From positions 68,714 through 132,713 of the forward strand of contig JAJRZK010000027.1 of assembly GCA_024275315.1 (NCBI GenBank): 64,000 nucleotides of DNA, read 5' to 3'. Below the pieces are notes generated by a model, which made no database searches, was not told the DNA's origin, and saw nothing but the letters and a program-made list of their open reading frames with translations. The number at the start of each line of letters is the position of its first letter. Within the stretch, counting starts at the first letter, position 1. Shown here piece by piece: positions 34,399 to 38,964 of the stretch. This DNA is from Nitrospirota bacterium (GTDB lineage: Bacteria; Nitrospinota_A; UBA7883). Made by a program: the position numbers and the translations under genes.

Positions 34399-34641
34399 TC
34401 ACTTGATACGTTCGTATTTGGCCTGGAGCTCTTCCTTTGTTTCTTTATTGTCCGGATCGGACACGATGCAATCTACAGGACAGACATCCACGCACTGAGG
34501 CTCGTCATAATGTCCGACACACTCGGTGCATTTGCCCGGGTCGATGATATATATGTCCTCGCCCTCCGATATGGCCTCATTCGGGCATTCGGGCTCGCAC
34601 ACTCCACAGTTAACGCACTCTTCGTTAATCAGTAAGGCCAT
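34399..34641 (-). CDS. 2x[4Fe-4S] ferredoxin (YfhL-like)
   Basis: [12 protein letters not shown] and [18 protein letters not shown] cluster motifs. 80 aa. Confidence 0.82.
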
Positions 34642-34662
34642 TTGATACTCTCCATTTGCTAA

Positions 34663-37600
34663 TCAATAGTTTTCAAATACGCGTTCTTTGCCGCGGTATT
34701 GCTCCGCCTGGTACATGAACGCCTCTAGACGTGTCTGAGAGTTAGTCTCCTCGACACCGTCATAGTCAAGGTTGAGCCAGGGTATGTTGTCATGGTCTTC
34801 CCGAAGTTTTTTCGAGATAGCGGCGACTATAGTGCCTGGCATACAGGAAAAAGGCATAATGTTTACAACGCCATCCAAACCCTTCCGCGCAAAATCCACC
34901 GCTTTGCCCAGGCTCAATATCGCCTCGCCCTCGATCGTGTCGCGCATGTAAGGGCTTGCGTATTCGAGCACCTGGCCGATCATCGGATCTTCGGCGCTCG
35001 CCAGGGTCTCCTTGAATGGCTCCAGCAGTTTTCGCTCATCCTTTTTCTGGATTCTATCCTGCATGTAACCTTTAATGAGGTCAAGATATTTTTTGTCGAT
35101 CCTGGACTTGTTAATATACCGGTCCGTGCAGTACATTATCCATTCCCCGATAGGCGCAAGCCACACTTTGCCACCCAGATTCTCTATACGCTTTATGATC
35201 TCCTGGTTGCCAAACGAATGGCTCCGCATGAATATTTCGCCGACAACGCCTATGCGCGGCCTGGTTTTTCCATCCACCTGTATAGCCTGAAACCTGTCTT
35301 GTATCTCCCATACGTAATCAAATAACAGCGAGCTGTCTTTTTCCACCAGTTCGGCCGTTTTTTGTAGGCATTGCTCATACACCCTGTCCGTTTCGCCCGG
35401 TCGCAACTCGTGCGGGCGGGTCTCGTGCAACAGCTTCGCGAGAATATCCACCACAACGACACCACGCCAAGCGGACCTGCGAAACCGCATCCCAAAATCC
35501 ACACTGTTACCATAGCCACTGTCCGCGTCTGGAGAAAGGAGCGGAACATTGCCAAACCCCAGCTCGTCTAGAATGATCCTCTGCACCCTTTGATACTGGC
35601 CAAACCGGCAGGGACCCTGGGTGGTGGGCATGAAAAAGGCTGACCTGTCCGGATCGAACCCTGTCTCCCGCGCTTTTTTGATTATGTCTCCGGTGGTGAT
35701 GGCAAACGGGACACATTCCTTGCCGGAGGAGAATTTCAGGCCGATATCCAGGGACTCCCGATCCGACTTGGGCAAAAGCACAGCCGGCACACCGGTTCCC
35801 CGCAGAGCGGCCGCGATAATGTGACCATGGTCGCACATATATGGGAGATAAAGAGTCCTGCAACGACCCTTGACGATATCTCCCCTAACGACCCCGGCGC
35901 CGACGCCGTTCCCGTTGTATCCGCCGGAACCGGCGCCATTGACGCCGGTTTTCCCCAGGATATTCCGGACGACCACGGACGCGGTTTCACAGTTCTCAAG
36001 GCTGTCGAAAAACGCCTCCAGCCTGGTAATCGCCCCGGCGTCGGCTGCGTGCTCGTCTATCTCCAGGCGCAGGCATGGTTTCCCCCCCAGGGCTTGCGTC
36101 AAAATATGCTCGATAAACGAATCCGGTCCGCACTTGAAGCTGTATATAAAAATGGCGTCCAGACGGTTGTTTTTGCCCACCTGCTGCGCGGCGGAGATTA
36201 TCCTTTGGCCCGATCGCCAGTACATGTCCGGATACTTGTCCCAAGCGGGTCCCTCGGCAAGATCGAGAAAATCGATGGGTACAGCAATTTTACCCATCTC
36301 CCGCAGTTTGCGAGGCAGGTCCAGGTTTATCCCGGAATCACAGCCATTGTAGGGTCTGCTTAGTATCACCACAGGCTTTTCCCCACGGTCCTGGGCTTGC
36401 CTGAGAACTTCCCTTCCCCGGTCCCGCATGGACATGTAAAACGCGTCCTGCGCTTTTCTGGCCTTGGCGACGGCTCTTCTTATGTCTTTCAACGGTATCC
36501 CGAACTTGTCGCCCAAAACGGTCTTCAGCTCCCTGGCGACATCCTGGTCACCGCGTTGAAAAAAAATGGAAGGCGCAAGCAAATCCACGCCGGCGCCGGC
36601 GAGGTCTATCGCGGACTGGATGATGTGCGATATCGACTGCACCAGCGGGCACGTGTAACTTTGCACAAACATGCTCTTCACGGAATTCATGGTGATGACG
36701 GATGGGAGAAAAATAAAATCGACACCCTTTTCTATCAGGTCGATTACGTGCCCGTGCATGATCTTTATGGGGAAACACGTCTCCGCCTTTACATGCTGTA
36801 TAGAATCCCGAATCACCGCCGGTGACGTCTTGCCGGACAGCACCACCTCAAACCCCAAATCTTCCAGGAGAGTCTTCCAGAAGGGGAACAGTTCGTAAGA
36901 CATAAGGCTCCTGGGCACACCCACCGCGGCCCTGGTCCCCGATGGCCGTTTTACCTTCGTCGACACGGAACCGAACATCATCTTCTCCCGTTCGACGAAA
37001 AGATCGACGGGACGATCGGCCTTTTTCTTCTTTTTCTTGTCTCCCTCGAACAGCTCGCAACGGGCGCCATAGTAATGTGCGTCCTCGCCTTCAAACTTGA
37101 TCCGGCTGACATTGCACACATTGTCGCAAGCCTTGCACTCGAACGTGGTGACCTTGTATTTCCTGTTCTGCAAGTCAAACCCCAGGAACCTGGAAGGCTC
37201 TGAAGGGCCATCCCGCAAACGCTTTTTCATGGCGATAAGAGCCGCTCCTATCGCTCCTGTTACGTCGTGGTGAGGCGGGACGGTGATTTTCTTCCCGGTG
37301 ACGTTTTGAAAAGCCGCAACCACCGCCCTGTTCCACGCCACCCCTCCCTGGAACAGGATGTTGGAGCCGATCTTCCTGTCTCCCACCACCTTGTTGAGGT
37401 AGTTCGATACAATCGAATAGGCCAGCCCCGCGGCCAGATCCTGCTTGTTCATCCCTTTCTGCTGGTTCGACACCAGGTCCGACTCGATGAAGACCGTGCA
37501 TCTGTCGCCGAATTTGCCCGGCGCTTTCGCATCAAAAGCCGTATTGGCGAAATCCTTTTCGATATCAAGGTCTATCTTCTCCGCCTGCTCCTCGATAAAC

Positions 37601-38964
37601 GACCCGGTGCCCGCGGCGCATACCTTGTTCATTTCAAAATCAACCACGGCGCCTTTGTCGATGGAGACGTATTTGCTGTCCTGCCCGCCGATCTCGAAAA
37701 TCGTATCCACTTCCGGATGAAAATGTATCGCCGCCGTCGCCTGGGCGGTTATTTCATTGCGGACGGTGTCGGCGCCGATAAAGTCGCCGATCATATACCG
37801 GCCCGATCCGGTGGTTCCCACCCCGAGTACGTTGACCTTATCCCCTATTTCCGACCCTATCTCCATCAGGCCCCTGGTGACCGCCTCGATGGGGCGGCTC
37901 CTAGTCCTGATGTATCGTCTCGCGATAACTCTCATGCTCTCGTCGATGGCGACCACGTTTGTGCTCAGCGACCCTATATCCACACCGATAAAACATCCGA
38001 TGTTTTTGTGGCCGTTCAATCTGTTCGTATGTGTGTCATACATCTCGTCATTCATCTCGCCGGTCAGGGGGCTCATGGAGCTTCTGGCGGCGTTGCGCAC
38101 GGCTCGATAGTTCTCAAGCCCACCGGTCCCCTTGAACCTGAAGCCGTTCTGGTTCTCCATGGAAATCAGCGCCGCGCCTATGGCGCCCATTACCGCCCGC
38201 TCCGGCGGGATGAATAACTCCTCTGCCGGCAATTCGAACTGTTCCGCCATGGCCTGCACCACGCCCTGGTTCCAGGAGACCCCACCGAAAAACGCGACTG
38301 GTTTGTTAATCTCCCTGCCCATGCACACGTTGCTCTTGTATGACCTCGCCACCGCGTGGCACAGCCCCGCCACTATATCCCACACCGGAGTTCCGATCTG
38401 TTGCAGGTGGATCATGTCGGATTTTGCGAAGACGGAGCACCGCCCCGCGATCCGCGGCGGGTTCTTGGATTTCAGCGCCAACTGGCCAAACTCGCCTTCT
38501 ATATCCACCCCGATTCGCTTGGCCTGCTGGTCCAGAAAACTGCCTGTGCCGGCGGCGCACAGATTGTTCATGGAAAAATCGGCGAGAACCGTCTTTCCCT
38601 CGACCTCCTTGAACATGAGCATCTTGGAGTCTTCTCCGCCCATCTCTATGAGTGTCCTGATGTTTGGGTACAAAGAGGATACGGCCCTGGAAAATGATAC
38701 GATCTCGTTGGCGAACTCCCCCCCCACCAGAGAAGCGACCAGTTCACCCGCGCTACCGGTGACGCCGATGTTCATGACGCGGGAGCCTTCGGCTTTTCCC
38801 AGCAGTTCGCTAATCGTTTTTACCGTGGCCGGAATAGGCTCGCCATACGATCGTCTGTAGGAATGGGATAAAACAGAGCCACTAGAATCGACAATGGCTC
38901 CTTTAACCGAAACAGAGCCAATATCAAGACCAATCCATACACCACCGGTTTTGTCCAAGCCCAT
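34663..38964 (-). CDS. fused 2x BadF/BadG/BcrA/BcrD-type ATPase (CoA-substrate-specific enzyme activase) + 2-hydroxyacyl-CoA-dehydratase-like domains (1433 aa)
   Basis: Two acetate/sugar-kinase-fold ATPase repeats (IGLDIGSVSVKG... and IGVDIGSLSTNV...), each with cluster-ligand CAAGTGSF motifs, followed by HgdB/HgdC-like dehydratase domains. YjiL/YjiM-type fusion architecture. Confidence 0.85.
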   Translation of the reverse strand: MGLDKTGGVWIGLDIGSVSVKGAIVDSSGSVLSHSYRRSYGEPIPATVKTISELLGKAEGSRVMNIGVTGSAGELVASLVGGEFANEIVSFSRAVSSLYPNIRTLIEMGGEDSKMLMFKEVEGKTVLADFSMNNLCAAGTGSFLDQQAKRIGVDIEGEFGQLALKSKNPPRIAGRCSVFAKSDMIHLQQIGTPVWDIVAGLCHAVARSYKSNVCMGREINKPVAFFGGVSWNQGVVQAMAEQFELPAEELFIPPERAVMGAIGAALISMENQNGFRFKGTGGLENYRAVRNAARSSMSPLTGEMNDEMYDTHTNRLNGHKNIGCFIGVDIGSLSTNVVAIDESMRVIARRYIRTRSRPIEAVTRGLMEIGSEIGDKVNVLGVGTTGSGRYMIGDFIGADTVRNEITAQATAAIHFHPEVDTIFEIGGQDSKYVSIDKGAVVDFEMNKVCAAGTGSFIEEQAEKIDLDIEKDFANTAFDAKAPGKFGDRCTVFIESDLVSNQQKGMNKQDLAAGLAYSIVSNYLNKVVGDRKIGSNILFQGGVAWNRAVVAAFQNVTGKKITVPPHHDVTGAIGAALIAMKKRLRDGPSEPSRFLGFDLQNRKYKVTTFECKACDNVCNVSRIKFEGEDAHYYGARCELFEGDKKKKKKADRPVDLFVEREKMMFGSVSTKVKRPSGTRAAVGVPRSLMSYELFPFWKTLLEDLGFEVVLSGKTSPAVIRDSIQHVKAETCFPIKIMHGHVIDLIEKGVDFIFLPSVITMNSVKSMFVQSYTCPLVQSISHIIQSAIDLAGAGVDLLAPSIFFQRGDQDVARELKTVLGDKFGIPLKDIRRAVAKARKAQDAFYMSMRDRGREVLRQAQDRGEKPVVILSRPYNGCDSGINLDLPRKLREMGKIAVPIDFLDLAEGPAWDKYPDMYWRSGQRIISAAQQVGKNNRLDAIFIYSFKCGPDSFIEHILTQALGGKPCLRLEIDEHAADAGAITRLEAFFDSLENCETASVVVRNILGKTGVNGAGSGGYNGNGVGAGVVRGDIVKGRCRTLYLPYMCDHGHIIAAALRGTGVPAVLLPKSDRESLDIGLKFSSGKECVPFAITTGDIIKKARETGFDPDRSAFFMPTTQGPCRFGQYQRVQRIILDELGFGNVPLLSPDADSGYGNSVDFGMRFRRSAWRGVVVVDILAKLLHETRPHELRPGETDRVYEQCLQKTAELVEKDSSLLFDYVWEIQDRFQAIQVDGKTRPRIGVVGEIFMRSHSFGNQEIIKRIENLGGKVWLAPIGEWIMYCTDRYINKSRIDKKYLDLIKGYMQDRIQKKDERKLLEPFKETLASAEDPMIGQVLEYASPYMRDTIEGEAILSLGKAVDFARKGLDGVVNIMPFSCMPGTIVAAISKKLREDHDNIPWLNLDYDGVEETNSQTRLEAFMYQAEQYRGKERVFENY

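Follow-up and report, generated by a model that had tools for sequence, protein, structure and literature searches.

What does a bacterium do with a protein that carries, on a single chain, two activator-type ATPases and two dehydratase-like modules? The question is raised by a gene at 34663..38964 (-) (coordinates include the stop codon) in a stretch of 64,000 nucleotides (nt), referred to as the window, from a Nitrospirota bacterium that GTDB places in Nitrospinota_A (assembly GCA_024275315.1, contig JAJRZK010000027.1, positions 68,714 to 132,713). The gene encodes 1433 amino acids (aa) and is followed at once by a ferredoxin gene, 34399..34641 (-). We conclude, with good confidence, that its product is a single-chain representative of the PlsA/PlsR–Ger family: a predicted O2-sensitive, ATP-driven reductase that acts on membrane glycerolipids. 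Taken by itself, the large gene is an unexceptional representative of a very large family, found here in a Nitrospinota lineage. Worth recording are 2 features around and within it: a linked YfhL-type ferredoxin that is specific to the lineage, and an invariant four-cysteine linker. We discuss the anatomy of the protein, its family and likely product, the ferredoxin, and a mechanism that would join them.

Anatomy of the fused protein

The large gene is one intact open reading frame (ORF) with an ATG start and no internal stop codons, and a putative ribosome-binding site, GAGGGG, lies 5 nt 5' of the ATG (38970..38975 (-)). Such a long fusion raises the suspicion of several genes merged by assembly error. 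Homologues number more than 8000; among the best 120, on which lengths and coverage were judged, most are full-length (1384-1464 aa, 99-100% coverage) and the remainder are mainly partial. Because most of these homologues are full-length, we regard the gene as a real fusion and rule out an assembly or merge artefact.

The N-terminal half consists of 2 ATPase domains. Pfam recognizes PF01869 (BcrAD_BadFG; 236 bits) in two stretches, residues ~11-270 and 326-578, and NCBIfam likewise finds two stretches of TIGR00241 (302 bits), a generic "acyl-CoA dehydratase activase" domain. The first domain (residues ~8-270, 38155..38943 (-)) is delimited by Pfam, TIGR00241, and alignment to HadI; it shows the motifs DIGS and GGEDSK of the ASKHA type and aligns to HadI (4eht; E = 1e-33) in the way that the second aligns to HgdC. 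Its candidate cluster cysteines are C136, in a CAAGTGSF loop (NLCAAGTGSFLD), and C176, in GRCSVFAK. The second domain (residues ~323-580, 37225..37998 (-)), placed by alignment to HgdC (1hux), offers C449, again in CAAGTGSF (KVCAAGTGSFIE), and C489, in DRCTVF. A phmmer alignment sets C449 on Cys127 of HgdC and C489 on the cysteine of the conserved "SSTCTVFAES" motif, which we take to be the two ligands that each HgdC monomer contributes to the bridging [4Fe-4S] cluster. All four cysteines are invariant in 36 aligned sequences. The single chain with two activator-type repeats, each with its CAAGTGSF loop, is thus as an earlier reading of the bare sequence (the original prediction) had described it.

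The C-terminal half is less easily recognized by sequence. A PDB sequence search with the large protein matched the ATPase half only (HadI, HgdC, and MbdQ/P); it returned no match for the C-terminal 850 residues, and HadB/C and HgdA/B were not matched. Pfam places PF09989 (DUF2229; 208 bits, E = 1.9e-61) at residues 681-898, after both ATPases. This hit, together with fold matches, defines a first reduction/dehydration module at residues ~676-1000 (35965..36939 (-)), with invariant cysteines C730, C772, and C945. A second module, the PlsR equivalent, spans residues ~1035-1433 (34666..35862 (-)) and carries invariant C1084, C1119, and C1374. It is defined by its hhalign alignment to the first module and by a weak Pfam hit, PF06050 (HGD-D), that covers 57 residues (1361-1417) at 26.8 bits, under the cut-off of 28.4. 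Between the modules lies a disordered, Gly-rich linker (35866..35988 (-)) that is poorly conserved: pLDDT falls below 50 at residues 404-444 of the AlphaFold2 model, and the alignment consensus is undefined there.

Two lines of evidence establish that both modules are dehydratase-like, as originally claimed. First, when residues 675-1000 are compared with 1035-1433 by hhalign, 280 columns align at E = 5e-5 and three cysteine pairs fall in register: C730/C1084, C772/C1119, and C945/C1374. Because the modules align with their cysteines in register, we read them as a built-in, HgdA/HgdB-like pseudo-heterodimer to which each module brings three cysteines. Second, the AlphaFold2 model of residues 590-1433, built from 31 homologues (mean pLDDT 82.5, pTM 0.82), was compared with the PDB by Foldseek, and the top 12 matches are only to BzdNO, the double-cubane cluster protein (DCCP), MbdON, and HadBC (E = 6e-6 to 2e-4). 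The domain picture from Pfam and NCBIfam (two ATPases, DUF2229, and a weak HGD-D) and the PDB and fold matches agree in placing the protein in the superfamily of ATP-driven, low-potential electron-injection systems that includes the 2-hydroxyacyl-CoA dehydratases (HAD), the benzoyl-CoA reductases (BCR), and DCCP. That placement, too, had been foreseen.

Between the second ATPase and the first module, the alignment reveals a further motif, C610-x2-C613-x3-C617...C636 (residues 604-640, 37045..37155 (-)). All 35 sequences with coverage here keep it unchanged, across both deep clades of the family; in the AlphaFold2 model it forms a small beta unit of low confidence. A Zn site and an additional Fe-S relay are both conceivable roles. 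No mention of this motif was found in those parts of the PlsA and Ger literature that were accessible. With it, the candidate ligands come to 14: C136, C176, C449, C489, C610, C613, C617, C636, C730, C772, C945, C1084, C1119, and C1374. All 14 are identical in the window protein and 34 aligned homologues, among them those of Listeria, Collinsella, Fusobacterium, and Haliovirga. Only a truncated Anaerolineae ORF and a divergent Paraclostridium protein depart from this.

The latter is a 1282-aa homologue on the Paraclostridium bifermentans plasmid pHD0315_2-2 (locus L093, 2992-6840). It has the ATPase and module-1 cysteines, is the sole aligned homologue without the four-cysteine linker, and is also without all three module-2 cysteines. 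It may have degenerated, or may work in a different way.

An enzyme family of ether-lipid synthesis

What would such a protein act upon? The original prediction held that the fused family was functionally uncharacterized and its substrate unknown. This claim is out of date, having been superseded by literature of 2021-2025 in which the PlsA/PlsR and Ger architecture was tested by heterologous expression. PlsA/PlsR is a two-gene operon in C. perfringens (CPE1194-1195; Q8XL48 and Q8XL47), and E. faecalis (Q835P9), L. cremoris, and B. longum each carry plsA as a single gene of ~1415-1640 aa (PMC12838417; PMC9702350). The pls genes of these 4 species yield plasmalogens upon expression in E. coli (PMC12838417; PMC9702350; PMC10191378), and the Listeria orthologues are stated to be active anaerobically (PMC9702350). 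Ger of T. maritima (Tmari_0479 / AGL49404) and D. alkenivorans (SHJ90043), also termed "modified PlsA", yields 1-O-alkylglycerols in anaerobic E. coli (PMC13159169). In both cases, the sn-1 ester of a glycerolipid is converted to an ether, vinyl or alkyl (PMC12838417; PMC9702350; PMC13159169). The architecture published for Ger is two copies of PF01869, one PF09989, and small PF06050/PF09989 pieces; homologues are reported in many phyla, "Nitrospinaea" included (PMC13159169). The published criterion for a Ger homologue is a DIAMOND match to T. maritima Ger with e <= 1e-50 and at least 30% coverage.

Homology to pls-type genes supports the same assignment. In tblastn searches, the window protein aligns with a single gene of L. 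monocytogenes (1475 aa) over 99% of its length (26.6% identity, E = 1e-146) and with a pls-type gene of Collinsella aerofaciens, also at 99% coverage. In Fusobacterium, a two-gene form of 975 and 404 aa covers 96% of the window protein; the 404-aa PlsR-like protein aligns to module 2, and the 975|404 split falls inside the disordered Gly-rich linker. Haliovirga abyssi supplies a further pls-type gene among the matches in the plasmid collection. The homologues from these 4 genera share the PF01869-PF01869-PF09989 core with the window protein, and those of Brocadia and Desulfobacteraceae give the same Pfam picture. The Collinsella gene has a TetR-like regulator upstream, and a TetR-type regulator upstream of plsA is reported for E. 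faecalis (EF1326/EF1327; PMC9702350).

The pls-type genes came from PLSDB records (NZ_LR134399.1, NZ_CP030101.1, NZ_OY725717.1, and NZ_CP084075.1). Several of these "plasmid" records look chromosomal (Listeria 2.9 Mb, Fusobacterium 2.1 Mb, Collinsella 0.9 Mb), and the matches are not to be read as plasmid-borne genes.

Public annotations of the family ("acyl-CoA dehydratase activase", "2-hydroxyacyl-CoA dehydratase") suggest a different substrate, namely a CoA thioester, on which the protein would act as a self-activating 2-hydroxyacyl-CoA dehydratase or an aryl-CoA reductase. The ATPase matches to HadI, HgdC, and MbdQ/P and the C-terminal fold matches to HadBC and BzdNO are in keeping with this. 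However, the HGD-D hit is below threshold and short, and the NCBIfam models for the specific enzymes score far too low: benz_CoA_red_A 158 bits versus 578, bzdQ 106 versus 380, and benz_CoA_red_D 103 versus 313. The neighborhood is without a CoA-transferase, a 2-hydroxyacid dehydrogenase, or aromatic-degradation genes, and across 88 loci the gene typically stands alone, with no recurrent metabolic partner. Moreover, the same architecture, expressed alone in E. coli, gives ether lipids (PMC13159169, PMC12838417). We consider a CoA-thioester enzyme very improbable.

The presence of DCCP among the top fold matches brings in another reading, in which the six module cysteines and the four linker cysteines would build a double-cubane or otherwise unusual cluster for the reduction of a small molecule. 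The arrangement of the cysteines speaks against it: the six are divided 3 + 3 over two paralogous modules. HadBC and BzdNO have this 3 + 3 arrangement over two modules, whereas in DCCP a single subunit provides all six. In addition, the characterized members of the window architecture act on lipids. We give this reading, if anything, even less credence than a CoA-thioester enzyme.

Membership in the PlsA/PlsR–Ger family, by which we would assign a lipid substrate to the window protein, has to be weighed against 2 points of its own. The tie to characterized enzymes consists of a published architecture, orthologues in taxa that the literature names, and an identity of 27% with the Listeria protein. 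Furthermore, no lipid-synthesis gene adjoins the large gene within the window. A scan of 31 larger window ORFs found no other ether-lipid genes (mss/tes-type radical SAM, elb, or agps). Besides the large gene, a single lipid-related gene was seen in the window, 25 kb away; it encodes an LPG_synthase_TM (PF03706) protein (9510-10526 (-)).

Alkyl or alkenyl ether

Members of the family differ in where the reaction ends. In a neighbor-joining tree of 36 sequences, 2 deep groups separate. One holds the Listeria, Collinsella, Fusobacterium, and Haliovirga proteins, which are 27-29% identical to the window protein. The other, at 41-69% identity, includes the window protein and brings together homologues from Ca. 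Brocadia and Scalindua (46-47%), from Desulfobacterota (44-49%), from Bacteroidales (46%), and from Nitrospirota and other groups. The nearest relatives are proteins from metagenome-assembled genomes (MAGs) of Nitrospinota, at 57-69% in the tree alignment, and P0002, at 89% in the homologue search. The groups also differ in sequence motifs, EIDEHSAD in the window group versus KIDEVSN in the Listeria group, GPCRFGQY versus GGCRATNY, and CMPGT versus CLPNH; the latter two differences surround module-2 cysteines.

Because the window protein clusters with homologues from anammox bacteria and sulfate reducers, and not with those of Listeria, Fusobacterium, and Collinsella, we lean weakly toward a saturated, Ger-like alkyl ether as its product. 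A "modified plsA" has been reported in Ca. Kuenenia and D. alkenivorans, and anammox bacteria and D. alkenivorans are published alkyl-ether producers that carry it (PMC8788747).

The protein might instead be a strict plasmalogen synthase of the PlsA/PlsR type, in which the reaction halts at the 1-alkenyl ether and the host makes plasmalogens; we regard this as somewhat doubtful, yet a serious contender. The window protein shares its family, its architecture, and its complete set of cysteines with the pls-type genes of Listeria, Collinsella, and Fusobacterium. The window clade also contains Bacteroidales, a group reported to have PlsA/PlsR homologues, which occur in ~15% of Bacteroidota (PMC10191378). 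The sequence itself does not distinguish alkyl from alkenyl products, and the field states that the two cannot be separated by homology (PMC11868695). These points count against an alkyl-ether assignment. Against a strict plasmalogen synthase stand the 27-29% identity to the clade of known plasmalogen producers, versus 44-49% to the anammox and sulfate-reducer homologues, and the clade-specific motifs at the module-2 cysteines, which carry no established tie to product type.

A ferredoxin linked to the enzyme gene

How would the enzyme obtain its electrons? The original prediction had noted a 2x[4Fe-4S] ferredoxin directly downstream, and the finding stands. The gene at 34399..34641 (-) encodes 80 aa with the motifs CxxCxxCxxxCP and CxxCx8CxxxCP, and scores 134.8 bits against the NCBIfam equivalog NF033683 (cut-off 86), which marks it as a ferredoxin of the YfhL/Alvin type. 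It lies on the same strand as the large gene, after a spacer of 21 nt that holds a putative ribosome-binding site, GGAGAG (34648..34653 (-)), and no terminator-like site. From this layout, the two genes are probably co-transcribed.

The linkage extends to related genomes. In every window-clade relative examined (loci L021 and L081-L086, 56-89% identity), the ferredoxin gene is directly downstream, with spacers of 21-75 nt. Orthologues in the Nitrospinota clade adjoin the large gene at eight places, in six distinct relatives. These ferredoxins are 75-98% identical, and are thus more conserved than the enzymes across the window-clade relatives. One of these loci, L086, keeps the enzyme and ferredoxin pair while its flanks differ, with HicAB and Dnd genes upstream and DUF116, NifU, and SecDF downstream. 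In the complete chromosome of a Gemmatimonadota bacterium (CP070758.1), with an enzyme 53% identical to that of the window, an orthologous ferredoxin gene lies directly upstream of the enzyme gene on the same strand (locus L087, 4570-4761). The encoded ferredoxin has a 67% identical core and the same cysteine spacing, without the C-terminal tail. Beyond these relatives, we surveyed distant loci at 41-57% identity from other phyla, 80 of which were listed; they come from species-representative genomes, all metagenome-derived, one of them the complete genome of Ca. Brocadia pituitae. A related ferredoxin adjoins one of the 80, in a Nitrospinota MAG.

On balance, we favor the ferredoxin as the physiological electron donor of the large enzyme. 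The competing view is that it is a mere neighbor: a housekeeping YfhL-type protein, kept in place by inherited gene order and not a dedicated donor. We hold this second view to be the lesser possibility, and a substantial one. YfhL-type ferredoxins are common housekeeping genes. The gene is missing beside 79 of the 80 listed homologues of other phyla. Most Nitrospinota cases share a long syntenic block of a LOG-family gene, the enzyme, the ferredoxin, a small transmembrane ORF (absent in some), DUF192, a lipoprotein, and an ABC transporter; because this wider synteny is shared, the adjacency may be partly inherited gene order. Nor do PlsA and Ger need a co-expressed ferredoxin in order to work in E. 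coli (PMC13159169, PMC12838417). All these points weigh against a dedicated donor. Gene order alone, however, accounts less well for an adjacency that persists in L086, where both flanks have changed, and in Gemmatimonadota, where the ferredoxin has moved upstream. The short, same-strand spacers, without a terminator in the window, point the same way.

A YfhL-type ferredoxin gene dedicated or adjacent to an ether-lipid enzyme in a Nitrospinota lineage may be new here; the accessible portions of the Ger and PlsA papers yielded no mention of an adjacent ferredoxin gene, and none of the papers searched names plasmalogen synthase together with ferredoxin.

Proposed mechanism

The following scheme is drawn by analogy from knowledge of the HAD, BCR, and DCCP superfamily. 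The 2 fused HgdC-like ATPase domains would pair as a pseudo-dimer and grip a single [4Fe-4S] cluster between them, with C136/C176 and C449/C489 as its ligands. A low-potential ferredoxin would reduce this cluster, the likely donor here being the YfhL/Alvin-type protein encoded next door. ATP binding and hydrolysis would then lower the potential of the cluster and dock it on the module pair, so that an electron is driven "uphill". Each HgdA/B-like module would use its three cysteines to hold a [4Fe-4S] cluster with one open iron. This free iron would bind the carbonyl of the phospholipid sn-1 ester, and reduction would proceed through a ketyl radical. Transfer of 2 electrons and 2 protons would give a hemiacetal, and dehydration a 1-alkenyl (vinyl) ether; in Ger-type enzymes, two further electrons would give the saturated 1-O-alkyl ether.

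Ferredoxin or flavodoxin serves as the reductant for activators of the HgdC type. A net reduction by 2 or 4 electrons requires a stoichiometric supply of electrons, unlike the turnover of redox-neutral dehydratases. The proposed reaction would therefore use electrons stoichiometrically, as BCR and DCCP do and dehydratases do not, and such use would fit both the permanent fusion of the ATPases and a co-encoded ferredoxin.

Other neighbors and the wider window

Downstream of the ferredoxin, the original prediction listed a small membrane protein, DUF192, and a BamE-like lipoprotein. The ORFs and the DUF192 assignment hold, and the likeness to BamE is below threshold. At 33976..34212 (-) lies an ORF of 78 aa whose one hydrophobic segment, near the N-terminus, is judged from the sequence to be a single transmembrane span, and DUF192 (PF02643, E = 2.8e-30) lies at 33465..33923 (-). 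The small lipoprotein gene occupies 33175..33468 (-), or 33175..33609 (-) if read from the first ATG; its sole match, to BamE, reaches 20.1 bits, under the cut-off of 23.2, and leaves that identity unconfirmed. The order of these genes is the same in Nitrospinota relatives and differs in L086. We regard the genes in 33175..34212 (-) as conserved downstream neighbors, with no membership of the system implied. Further downstream is an ABC-2 transporter with GldG-like and DUF4340 proteins; other neighbors of the large gene are the LOG-family gene, MTHFR/homocysteine methyltransferase, and Rho.

The region 28058-39713 (-) is syntenic in several Nitrospinota MAGs, with the enzyme at 59-68% identity. 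It comprises LOG, the enzyme, the ferredoxin, DUF192, the lipoprotein, an ABC ATPase, an ABC-2 permease, and the GldG-like and DUF4340 genes; the 78-aa transmembrane ORF between the ferredoxin and DUF192 is present in some of these MAGs.

Across the 88 loci, the enzyme has no universal partner gene, and none recurs in more than 7. In 6 of the 88, a ~314-aa radical-SAM protein is encoded just upstream on the same strand. In 6 others, the upstream neighbor is a ~302-aa Cys-rich Fe-S protein, the representative shown being from Bacteroidales. Both are lineage-specific; loci with one or the other include L024 (6667-7599) and L032 (6893-7789). A DUF116 (PF01976) gene lies 3' of the enzyme in L086 (9685-10566, after the ferredoxin) and in L088 (9487-10311), with otherwise different surroundings, and is possibly a second recurrent neighbor.

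The rest of the window is housekeeping: aminoacyl-tRNA synthetases, PBP1, NadA, DnaJ/GrpE, Rho, and the CCA-adding enzyme, along with chemotaxis genes, sigma-54 regulators, and ComEC. Among the synthetases is a class I lysyl-tRNA synthetase (PF01921; 924-2507 (-)), a form that is uncommon in bacteria. The window also contains two genes of the GluRS/GlnRS type (PF00749), at 20341-21999 (+) and 49370-50785 (-).

Implications

Bacterial ether lipids blur the "lipid divide" between archaea and bacteria, and lipid proxies in wide use for palaeoclimate derive from them. The PlsA and Ger enzymes are known from genetics only, and we found no report of a purified enzyme in the literature. The locus described here offers a ferredoxin as a candidate donor for their reconstitution in vitro, and the four-cysteine linker and the clade-specific module-2 motifs provide concrete targets for mutagenesis.

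A bolder proposal, which we advance tentatively and at somewhat less than even chance, is that in Nitrospinota and some Gemmatimonadota an ether-lipid enzyme has recruited its own very-low-potential Alvin/YfhL ferredoxin, forming a self-contained two-gene module. If true, it would provide the first physiological partner for this enigmatic class of ferredoxins, would name the missing natural electron donor for PlsA/Ger reconstitution, and would bring ether lipids or plasmalogens to a phylum best known for aerobic nitrite oxidizers.

Comparison with known systems

The window protein can be set beside 6 known systems. The 2-hydroxyacyl-CoA dehydratases (HgdAB/HgdC, HadBC/HadI) are built from separate parts, whereas the window protein fuses all of them and matches HGD-D only below threshold. 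They perform a redox-neutral dehydration of CoA thioesters, in contrast to the net reduction of lipid esters in the PlsA/Ger family, and the window locus has no fermentation-pathway genes nearby.

Class I benzoyl-CoA reductases (BcrABCD, BzdNOPQ, MbdONPQ) are closer in their stoichiometric, ATP-coupled electron transfer, their two different ATPase domains, and their two-module core, and BzdN/O and MbdN/O are among the top fold matches. They differ in having four separate subunits and an aromatic CoA substrate, and the corresponding NCBIfam scores are far under the cut-offs.

DCCP and its reductase DCCP-R (C. hydrogenoformans; 6eno, 7yyl) belong to the same superfamily, share the ATP drive, and give comparable fold scores. 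DCCP is a homodimer that holds an [8Fe-9S] cluster on six cysteines of one subunit, unlike the window protein with its 3 + 3 cysteines on two paralogous modules.

The window ferredoxin resembles those of the YfhL class and of Allochromatium vinosum in falling under the NF033683 equivalog, with eight cysteines, an 8-residue insertion in the second motif, and a C-terminal helix. To our knowledge, no partner enzyme is established in general for this class; the window ferredoxin differs in its linkage to a Ger/PlsA-type gene.

PlsA/PlsR, in its Listeria and Fusobacterium forms, has collinear domains, the 14 shared cysteines, and a split point that falls in the Gly-rich linker of the window protein. 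It differs in that the Listeria/Collinsella/Fusobacterium group is only 27-29% identical and forms a separate deep clade with other motifs at the module cysteines. Moreover, the TetR-type regulator seen in Collinsella and reported in E. faecalis (PMC9702350) is absent at the window locus.

Ger, as described in the literature, is alike in being a single chain of ~1400 aa in which two PF01869 domains and PF09989 are joined to an HGD-D/DUF2229-like module at the C-terminus (PMC13159169). By the same published description, it is widespread in anaerobes, including Deltaproteobacteria, Planctomycetes, and "Nitrospinaea" (PMC13159169). The homologues of the large gene, for their part, usually stand alone, which is a further likeness to Ger.

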